Sequence record: PV763039.1
From: Escherichia phage WPEC6
Strand: one strand, 5' to 3'
Length of the DNA stretch: 64,000 bases
This document shows, piece after piece, positions 46,525-46,581 of the stretch. The first letter of the stretch is position 1. Every line of letters starts with the position of its first letter. The notes beneath the pieces were generated by a model. The model ran no database searches, was not told the DNA's origin, and saw nothing but the letters and a program-made list of their open reading frames with translations. The translations under genes and the position numbers were made by a program.

Positions 46525-46581
46525 TTGACTTTTTCAAAAAAATATGGTACCCTAAACATATGTTTACGAGCGATAGCGAGT
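46525..46581 (+). promoter_or_regulatory. conserved element B: TTGACT-N17-TACCCT-N12-ACGAGCG-AT-AGCGAGT
   Basis: second copy of element A; followed by two hairpins (46596-46631, 46640-46668). Confidence 0.5.

Follow-up and report, generated by a model that had tools for sequence, protein, structure and literature searches.

Sigma-70 promoters of the extended -10 type, in Escherichia coli and in lytic phages, combine a -35 hexamer and spacer with a TGn extension, A-11 and T-7 in the -10 hexamer, and a purine downstream. Opposing promoters and leader hairpins are likewise known: phage lambda makes OOP RNA from promoter pO, a short antisense RNA against the pR operon, and 5′-proximal stem-loops, such as that of the E. 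coli ompA leader, stabilize messenger RNAs (mRNAs). Here, we describe Element B, located at 46525-46581 on the plus strand of a 64,000-nucleotide stretch of DNA from Escherichia phage WPEC6 (PV763039.1), the whole of which we call the window. Element B reads TTGACT-17 nt-TGgTACCCT-12 nt-ACGAGCGATAGCGAGT and shares each of the above features of sigma-70 extended -10 promoters. On balance, we favor the reading, drawn from sequence comparison, that it is a functional sigma-70-type promoter of a conserved three-member class, most likely making a short, structured, non-coding plus-strand RNA. The features of the element, of the DNA that follows it, and its relative in the window are as follows.

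46525-46530, plus strand: -35 hexamer TTGACT (TTGACT, TTGACA, TTGATT, or TTTTAC/TTTACT across family members)
46545-46553, plus strand: extended -10 element, TGg + TACCCT, 17-nt spacer from the -35 hexamer; TGnTACCCT is invariant in ~20 distinct copies
46560, plus strand: predicted transcription start, an A, the seventh nucleotide after the -10 hexamer
46553-46566, plus strand: mini-hairpin alpha, palindrome TAAACATATGTTTA, straddling the predicted start
46564-46583, plus strand: hairpin beta (leader hairpin), UUAC-GA-GC-GAUA-GC-GA-GUAG, containing the conserved 16-mer ACGAGCGATAGCGAGT at 46566-46581
46584-46600, plus strand: A/U-rich linker; on the opposite strand, a U-rich tail after hairpin 1
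46601-46638, plus strand: hairpin 1 (hp1), a compound hairpin (10 + 5 bp) with compensatory pairs, U.G pairs, and a bias in folding energy
46646-46674, minus strand: hairpin 2 (hp2), stabler on the minus strand
24418-24474, plus strand: Element A, TTGACT-18-TGcTACCCT-12-ACGAGCGCAGCGAGT, the other family member in the window

An earlier note on this DNA had placed the element, as a second copy, inside a 360-bp gap, opposed to the surrounding genes and followed by two hairpins. All three statements hold. The gap spans 46324-46683 and is flanked by the minus-strand open reading frames (ORFs) 46108-46323 and 46684-46893, the motif lies on the plus strand, and hp1 and hp2 follow it.

The -35 hexamer TTGACT agrees with TTGACA at five of six positions, and the spacer (17 nt at B and 18 nt at A) is that of a sigma-70 promoter. 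The -10 element carries the TG one base upstream of the hexamer together with A-11 and T-7, as in the extended -10 type. Nearly all copies have a purine at the seventh nucleotide past TACCCT (in ~10 of them, the G of GAA), and a purine at this distance from the -10 hexamer would occupy the usual position of a sigma-70 start. What the earlier note had left conditional, that the element is a promoter, is thus well supported by its anatomy (-35, 17/18-nt spacing, TGn -10, A-11/T-7, and purine) in ~20 diverged copies, and the start itself stays a prediction. The family departs from other sigma-70 promoters in its invariant, C-rich -10 hexamer TACCCT, whereas the early promoters of this phage have TAAGAT, TATAGT, or TAATAT. 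The invariance of TACCCT exceeds what sigma-70 alone demands.

The phage possesses a second class of promoter with a 5′ hairpin, which is early-type (TTGACA-16/17-TGnTAAGAT or TATAGT) and carries a conserved hairpin, GCGGCAATGGTGCCGC, ~12 nt after the -10 hexamer. Hairpins of this type lie at window positions 980-1019 (minus strand), 2293-2332, 3245-3284, 4956-4995, 61003-61042, and 62231-62270, and early-type promoters at 2767, 3218, 61728, and 62204. Because the early promoters also have a hairpin ~12 nt past an extended -10 element, a promoter with a 5′ hairpin is the normal design in this phage. The predicted B-class promoters are set apart from the early ones by the C-rich -10 hexamer and by a leader hairpin of their own.

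A three-copy family with conserved positions

The window derives from a phAPEC8-like coliphage (genus Phapecoctavirus, subfamily Stephanstirmvirinae), and the 2.5 kb around Element B are 98.5-100% identical to >60 Phapecoctavirus Escherichia phages (phAPEC8, ESCO5, ASO2A, WPEC1, and others). The window has two occurrences of TTGACT-N16-19-TACCCT (at 24418 and 46525 on the plus strand) vs 0.03 expected, and two of ACGAGCG-N0-2-AGCGAGT vs 0.00 expected. A profile built from the family's own copies matches just A and B in the window (E = 1e-16 and 6e-13; next match, E = 0.8). Run over the complete ESCO5 genome, the profile yields exactly three copies (E = 6e-13 to 2e-16; next match, E = 0.84), positioned as follows.

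Copy A, 54.9 kb, plus strand: divergent junction between a nucleotide-metabolism block and a transfer RNA (tRNA), lysis, and structural block
Copy B, 13.8 kb, minus strand: antisense in the early block, between gp042 and gp043
Copy C, 132.1 kb, minus strand: between gp168 and gp169 and co-directional with its genes, close to where the replication-gene block begins

Copy C lies outside the window (ESCO5 NC_047776.2, ~132,090-132,160, minus strand) and reads TTGACT-18-TGcTACCCT-13-CGAGCGATAGCGAG. In Justusliebigvirus (phi92-like phages), the same three places are filled in the same orientations. PHB05 has B at ~7.9-8.0 kb, antisense in an early-block gap, A at ~47.6 kb at a divergent junction, and a C-type match at ~130.6 kb; phi92 has a C-type copy upstream of gp208 and co-directional with it. 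Citrobacter phage Tr1 carries A- and B-type copies in the same contexts, Klebsiella phage KP2025 a B-type copy, and a phiWec190-like IMG/VR contig both A and B. Eleven metagenome contigs contain one copy each, and 10 of these copies adjoin homologues of the matching ESCO5 neighbors (gp129 for A, gp043/044 for B, and gp168 for C; roughly 30-60% amino acid identity). The eleventh contig, L129, is without an ESCO5 homologue.

The -35 hexamer, the spacing, TGnTACCCT, CGAGCG, and AGCGAG are kept across ~20 distinct copies, the last three without variation, and on this comparison Element B is under selection. The non-coding B unit (46468-46674) shares 82.6% identity with phiWec190, and the flanking genes share 65-75%; in Tr1, PHB05, and KP2025, the DNA is alignable little past the ~60-bp core. 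Among four close genomes, 18 variable sites fall in 46100-46900 and none in 46543-46773, which, with ~3 expected in the 131-nt RNA region, is only suggestive of constraint.

We rejected coding as the explanation. The minus-strand ORF over Element B (46490-46609) appears as a 39-aa gene in some records (phAPEC8_0059 and ASO2A_058) and as a 42-aa GTG-initiated ORF in the list for the window. It has an odd composition and is not conserved: nothing is annotated at this locus in Tr1, PHB05, and KP2025, and in phiWec190 it meets a stop after two codons and therefore cannot account for the conservation of the element. Moreover, the same 60 bp are kept at A and C in other contexts. The ORF is probably a spurious gene call. 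A plus-strand ORF (46658-46852) was likewise set aside as not conserved and of odd composition, and no conserved plus-strand ORF follows the B-type copies.

The order of the window departs from that of the reference genomes: its positions 5036-28214 correspond to ESCO5 34002-58791, and 28434-60876 to ESCO5 31904-373 in inverted orientation. Because of this inversion, A and B lie on one strand, 22 kb apart, an arrangement specific to the present assembly; in ESCO5, ASO2A, and phAPEC8, 41 kb separate them and their strands are opposite. Every relative examined keeps B in an unchanged local setting, antisense in a gap. Overall, the window is a mosaic in respect to reference Phapecoctavirus genomes, with ~32 kb (ESCO5 373-31904) inverted and set after ESCO5 58791 and the first 5 kb scrambled; the junction regions are window 1-5036, 28214-28434, and 60876-62264, and the breakpoints adjoin the repeated early-promoter hairpin family. 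The WPEC1/2/4 records (155-161 kb, 100% identical locally) each show yet another order. The odd genome order reflects either a genuine rearrangement or a mis-assembly.

Some records named for other hosts, Acinetobacter phage ABPW7 (OP562383) and Campylobacter phage B15 (the Campylobacter phage records involved are MG0656xx), are 99-100% identical to these coliphages over the tested regions, and Pseudomonas phage PsgM04F (OR584014) is a phiWec190-like relative, ~84% identical. The host assignments of the ABPW7, Campylobacter phage, and PsgM04F records look doubtful.

Leader hairpin and palindrome at the predicted start

The conserved 15/16-mer folds as N-C-G-A-G-C-[G-N(1-2)-A]-G-C-G-A-G-N′, so that hairpin beta comprises two G-C pairs and a tandem G.A/A.G in a C-GA-G context. 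Its outer pair shows covariation, being C-G in 12 copies, A-U in six, and something else in two; 19 of the 20 copies also form the pair one step further out, nine of them as U.G. The covariation score is 0.309 vs 0.160 ± 0.031, is reached by none of 500 shuffles, and collapses on sliding the partner columns; the test is inflated by sequence relatedness, yet both forms, A-U and C-G, are distributed across the A, B, and C types. The loops differ by type: B-type copies have GATA, C-type copies either GAA or GATA, and GCA is present in PHB05 A and in those isolate-phage A-type copies that have kept an A-U outer pair. As RNA, beta folds on the plus strand with -5.0 to -6.0 kcal/mol, compared with about -2 kcal/mol on the minus strand (-5.0 and -1.8 kcal/mol, respectively, at B), the plus strand being ~3-4 kcal/mol stabler across copies. 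The covariation, the U.G pairs, and this strand bias favor a plus-strand RNA.

Similar to the ompA leader, beta would lie ~4-5 nt from the predicted 5′ end, and the early promoters of the phage have an analogous hairpin at the same distance. However, structure suffices for an mRNA stabilizer, whereas 12 stem and loop-flanking bases of beta are invariant, including the non-Watson-Crick G.A tandem, which suggests specific recognition.

Lambda nutL/nutR (boxB), HK022 putL/putR, and RfaH ops are promoter-proximal antitermination signals, which likewise occur in few copies per genome, close to a promoter, with a small conserved hairpin and a purine-rich loop. RfaH reads the ops mini-hairpin, closed by C:G, on the non-template strand (PMC5995543), and the ops hairpin and B have the same C:G-closed G..A loop geometry. 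The module could, by this analogy, be a loading site for an elongation or antitermination factor that renders polymerases leaving A, B, and C resistant to termination; at B, polymerase would then pass hp1 and hp2 and run antisense over the upstream early genes, silencing them later. We regard this as unlikely. It agrees with the few copies per genome, each directly downstream of a promoter and those at A and C heading long multigene blocks, with a hairpin conserved in sequence as well as structure, and with the finding of no convincing plus-strand terminator after B. The B/C loop region AGCGATAGCGAG also matches ops GGCGGTAGCGTG at nine of 12 positions and could form the same C:G-closed mini-hairpin, but this match is post hoc, the base-specific RfaH contact G5 of ops is A in B, and the A-type and several C-type loops have 3 nt (GCA and GAA), without the flipped T6. 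The family also differs from nut, put, and ops in its varied loops (GAA, GCA, GATA, and GGGA). By eye, no boxA-like element is present on the plus strand (no formal search was run), and the annotations of ESCO5 and of the fetched part of PHB05 list no N-, Q-, or NusG-like protein (no protein search was run).

Three narrower candidates were discarded. B is not an RfaH ops element proper (GGCGGTAGnnTG, of which G5 and T6 are read in a C3:G8 hairpin), as G5 is changed and the A-type GCA triloop is without T6. A boxA-like CGCUCGUAAAC on the minus strand, seen by eye, was dropped, as that strand is untranscribed at A. An N4-type hairpin promoter was set aside, the ESCO5 annotation having no gene for a giant virion RNA polymerase.

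Palindrome alpha varies between copies in its arms (TAAAC/GTTTA at B; elsewhere ACCT/AGGT, ACCC/GGGT, AACC/GGTT, and CAC/GTG) and is retained as a structure: the mean best stem is 3.65 bp vs 2.53 ± 0.15 bp for shuffled sequences, and none of 2000 shuffles reaches it. A palindrome at the predicted start occupies the classic position of an operator, B always adjoins a homologue of gene 46108-46323, and TTGATAGG repeats lie upstream, 31 bp apart. The element might hence be a double-stranded DNA binding site, an operator or boundary rather than a promoter in vivo, that regulates the divergent promoter of gene 46108-46323 or blocks upstream read-through. We give this little credence. The alpha palindromes differ among A, B, and C of one genome, so no single protein reader could serve them; the spacing within beta shifts with its 3- or 4-nt loop and leaves no dyad in duplex DNA; the G.A/A.G mismatch and covarying outer pair of beta are sensible only for a folded single strand; and the -35 hexamer, TGn, and -10 hexamer are all kept at the right spacing.

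The hairpin core GAGCG-N(1-2)-AGCGAG is also present in unrelated sequences, viral and bacterial repeats among them, and many matches from pattern scans of IMG/VR and metagenomes are unrelated to the family and have the hairpin core alone in common. About 25 viral contigs (IMG/VR; L007-L038) carry TACCCTATCCCCCCCAACGAGCGAAGCGAGTGGG, a 58-kb viral contig has tandem TACCCTATCCCCCCCAACGAGCGAAGCGAGTGGG arrays between TTTCCTTTAAATA repeats (loci L024 2540-2770 and 10230-10680), and soil-metagenome repeats contain GTCATTCCGAGCGAAGCGAGGAATC with covarying flanks. The G.A-tandem hairpin GAGCG-N-AGCGAG may be a general stable mini-hairpin motif.

Downstream hairpins and neighboring genes

The three types of copy lead into different sequences. 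B-type copies are followed by an A/U-rich linker and then hp1. Compared with phiWec190/PsgM04F, the window has two compensatory pair changes in hp1. Conserved U.G pairs of hp1 favor a plus-strand RNA because the opposite strand would have A.C mismatches. The folding energy of hp1 in the window is -16.4 kcal/mol on the plus strand vs -11.8 kcal/mol on the minus strand, with the same bias in phiWec190, PsgM04F, and Tr1, and a (U)UUCAUG...CAUGAAA-type stem recurs in PHB05, L109, and L129. The part of the earlier note that spoke of plus-strand RNA is therefore upheld as far as downstream structure goes, by covariation, U.G pairs, and the strand asymmetry of folding energy; the RNA itself stays a prediction.

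Hairpins of the (C)TTTCATG...CATGAAA(G) type occur 45-110 nt downstream of all three copy types, with the sequence itself conserved (window 46604-46636, L039, L109, L129, L089, L160, L085, and L148).

The second hairpin has the opposite bias (-15.0 kcal/mol on the minus strand vs -9.8 kcal/mol on the plus strand) and is annotated in the ASO2A record as a minus-strand rho-independent terminator (window 46636-46674). It is probably a terminator or 3′ hairpin of the converging early operon and possibly also the end point of a B transcript. A simple terminator scan did not call hp1 on the plus strand or hp2 on either strand. An RNA starting at 46560 would have ~80 nt if it ended after hp1 and ~115-125 nt if it ended after hp2.

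The earlier note took the promoter to point into the membrane-protein gene 46684-46893, whose product is a hydrophobic 69-aa protein (GRAVY, the grand average of hydropathicity, 1.3). Similar to lambda OOP, B would be a small opposing promoter inside an operon block; hairpins follow it, and its predicted short non-coding RNA would run toward the 3′ end of a convergent neighbor. In contrast to OOP, a coding overlap is not evident, the convergent gene is not conserved, and the promoter and leader are shared with two sense-oriented copies. We consider a cis-antisense regulator of this kind, or a type I antitoxin against the 69-aa gene, highly improbable, even though the neighbor is small and hydrophobic, the promoter aims at its 3′ end, and both RNAs would share hp2. 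The convergent gene does not travel with B: it encodes a membrane protein in the window and phiWec190 only, and soluble, unrelated proteins in PHB05, KP2025, and Tr1, on which ground a type I toxin-antitoxin role was rejected. In addition, hp2 ends 10 nt before the stop codon, so an RNA ending there would have no coding overlap. With hp1 and hp2 intervening, antisense RNA into the membrane-protein gene does not hold up as the purpose of B.

The steady partner of B is instead the divergent gene (window 46108-46323, ESCO5 gp043, PHB05 gp022, and a homologue in metagenome contig L109). Two further features lie between this gene and Element B.

46361-46390, minus strand: strong divergent promoter, TTGACA-18-TACATT with TG, serving gene 46108-46323
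46476-46484 and 46507-46515, plus strand: upstream repeat TTGATAGGT, two copies 31 bp apart (region 46476-46515)

Both TTGATAGGT copies are retained in phiWec190 and PsgM04F, and related (A/C)GATAGGAAT or TTAATAGGAAT sequences lie upstream of the Tr1 and KP2025 B copies; the repeat is possibly a regulator site or the UP region of the B promoter. Short repeats between the divergent promoters (window 46400-46520) comprise two copies each of ACTATAGG, TAAGACTTA, and (A)TTGATAGGT. The sequence GATAATTGATAGG recurs at window 499-511, upstream of the first early gene, and may be a regulator site.

C-type copies are followed by a long stable hairpin, a ribosome-binding site, and a gene, which encodes a small membrane protein in phi92 and four metagenome relatives. 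A-type copies have a ~250-nt leader with a conserved GATCTAACA motif and all-A/T palindromic blocks; beyond it lie tRNAs and late genes in ESCO5 and NAD-salvage genes in PHB05 and Tr1. Downstream of Element A (window 24476-24700), GTACTCTGTACT occurs twice, all-A/T palindromic blocks span 24531-24568 and 24621-24663, and four GATC sites fall within 110 bp; the GATCTAACA motif is kept in Tr1, PHB05, and metagenome A-type copies. This leader looks like an origin. The public record nieznany starts inside the Element A leader region, and 11 tRNA genes cluster at window 25702-27624 (plus strand; Rfam), ~1.2 kb downstream of Element A.

An R-loop-type, transcription-primed replication origin would be comparable with T4 ori(uvsY)/ori(34) and the T7 primary origin, in which a promoter is followed by A/T-rich DNA, as it is here, most clearly at copy A. 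The promoter transcript would then prime DNA synthesis, with the G-N-A mini-hairpins taking shape on the non-template strand that it displaces. The d(GCGAAGC) class of DNA mini-hairpins is unusually stable and occurs at single-strand origins, and the GAA, GCA, and GATA loops closed by C-G fit the rule for this class. Alpha, partly upstream of the start, is a DNA feature, the sequence beyond copy A resembles an origin in its GTAC repeats, GATC cluster, and two all-A/T palindromic blocks, and several copies per genome recall the multiple origins of T4. Nevertheless, the A/T-rich DNA after B extends for only ~25 nt, and neither iterons nor a GC-skew inflection is present there; the U.G pairs of the extended stem point to RNA over DNA; folding energies calculated for DNA are negligible, with parameters that take no account of special loop stability; and the C-type copies are ordinary 5′ untranslated regions (hairpin, ribosome-binding site, and gene). 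An origin is thus very unlikely as the function of the family. The earlier note had offered an origin, a pac-like signal, or an operator as alternatives to a promoter, and nothing specific at the B locus supports an origin, a pac site, or an operator.

Proposed transcription unit and its wider role

In the reading that we favor, phAPEC8/phi92-like phages (Stephanstirmvirinae and their metagenomic relatives) would possess a class of three promoters per genome, A, B, and C. Each would have a small palindrome at the start site and then, at about +5 to +24, a leader hairpin whose stem combines two G-C pairs with a tandem sheared G.A and whose loop is G-N(1-2)-A. Long operons, or a structured 5′ untranslated region and its gene, would follow the module at A and C. 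At B, we infer that RNA polymerase starts near 46560 and that the transcript runs through the leader hairpin, the A/U linker, and hp1 to end at or just past hp2, giving about 80-125 nt. This RNA would converge on the upstream early unit, with its promoter back-to-back with that of gene 46108-46323, the next early unit. The shared hairpin may be a common cis-regulatory handle, acting through RNA stability or one trans-acting factor, that co-regulates the three units. As guesses, the B RNA might serve as a boundary or insulator between two early units, or titrate the reader of the shared hairpin.

Several observations weigh against this reading. TACCCT agrees with TATAAT at only three of six positions, and for this reason the B promoter is absent from a simple consensus promoter scan. 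There is no clear plus-strand U tract after hp1 or hp2, as an intrinsic terminator would have. Beta alone is not significantly stabler than shuffles (z = -1.5 and -1.0). Alpha lies partly upstream of the predicted start; straddling it, alpha is therefore no purely RNA feature and hints at a DNA-level role outside the proposed model. In the search for targets or partners, 5,426 E. coli genomes gave no BLAST match to the B unit, and duplex prediction of the B RNA with the A and C leaders was no better than with shuffled sequences (-45.3 vs -43.8 ± 4.5 and -35.9 vs -38.7 ± 4.2 kcal/mol). The 10-13-nt complementarity of the B linker to the Element A start region was not significant (E = 41). The lack of a match in the 5,426 genomes also rules out a host small RNA mimic or a prophage element.

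A more far-reaching proposal is that TGnTACCCT and the double mini-hairpin form a phage regulatory switch, in which one factor reads the G.A-tandem hairpin and co-activates the three units while B fires antisense into the immediate-early operon, ending the early phase. By analogy with RfaH and ops, this factor, of phage or host, would read the nascent RNA or the exposed non-template strand. We rate this as distinctly unlikely.

Orphan antisense RNAs made from sigma-70 promoters are of a known kind. What appears undescribed is the coupling of an invariant TGnTACCCT promoter to a G.A-tandem leader hairpin at three syntenic places throughout a phage subfamily. With Rfam 15, only tRNAs pass the gathering threshold in the window, and at permissive thresholds nothing better than E ~2 is found around A and B. 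Literature searches on promoters and transcripts of Phapecoctavirus, phAPEC8, phi92, and Stephanstirmvirinae turned up no mention of the element, and the genome papers checked for these phages predict sigma-70 promoters by consensus only. Consensus rules would overlook this promoter class, whose -10 hexamer is TACCCT. For annotation, one spurious "hypothetical protein" would be removed and one non-coding RNA gene added. The phAPEC8- and phi92-like phages are widely isolated and are therapeutic candidates, and their transcription program is essentially unmapped. A module that is conserved beyond the surrounding proteins would point in these phages to a dedicated regulatory circuit at three precise loci.

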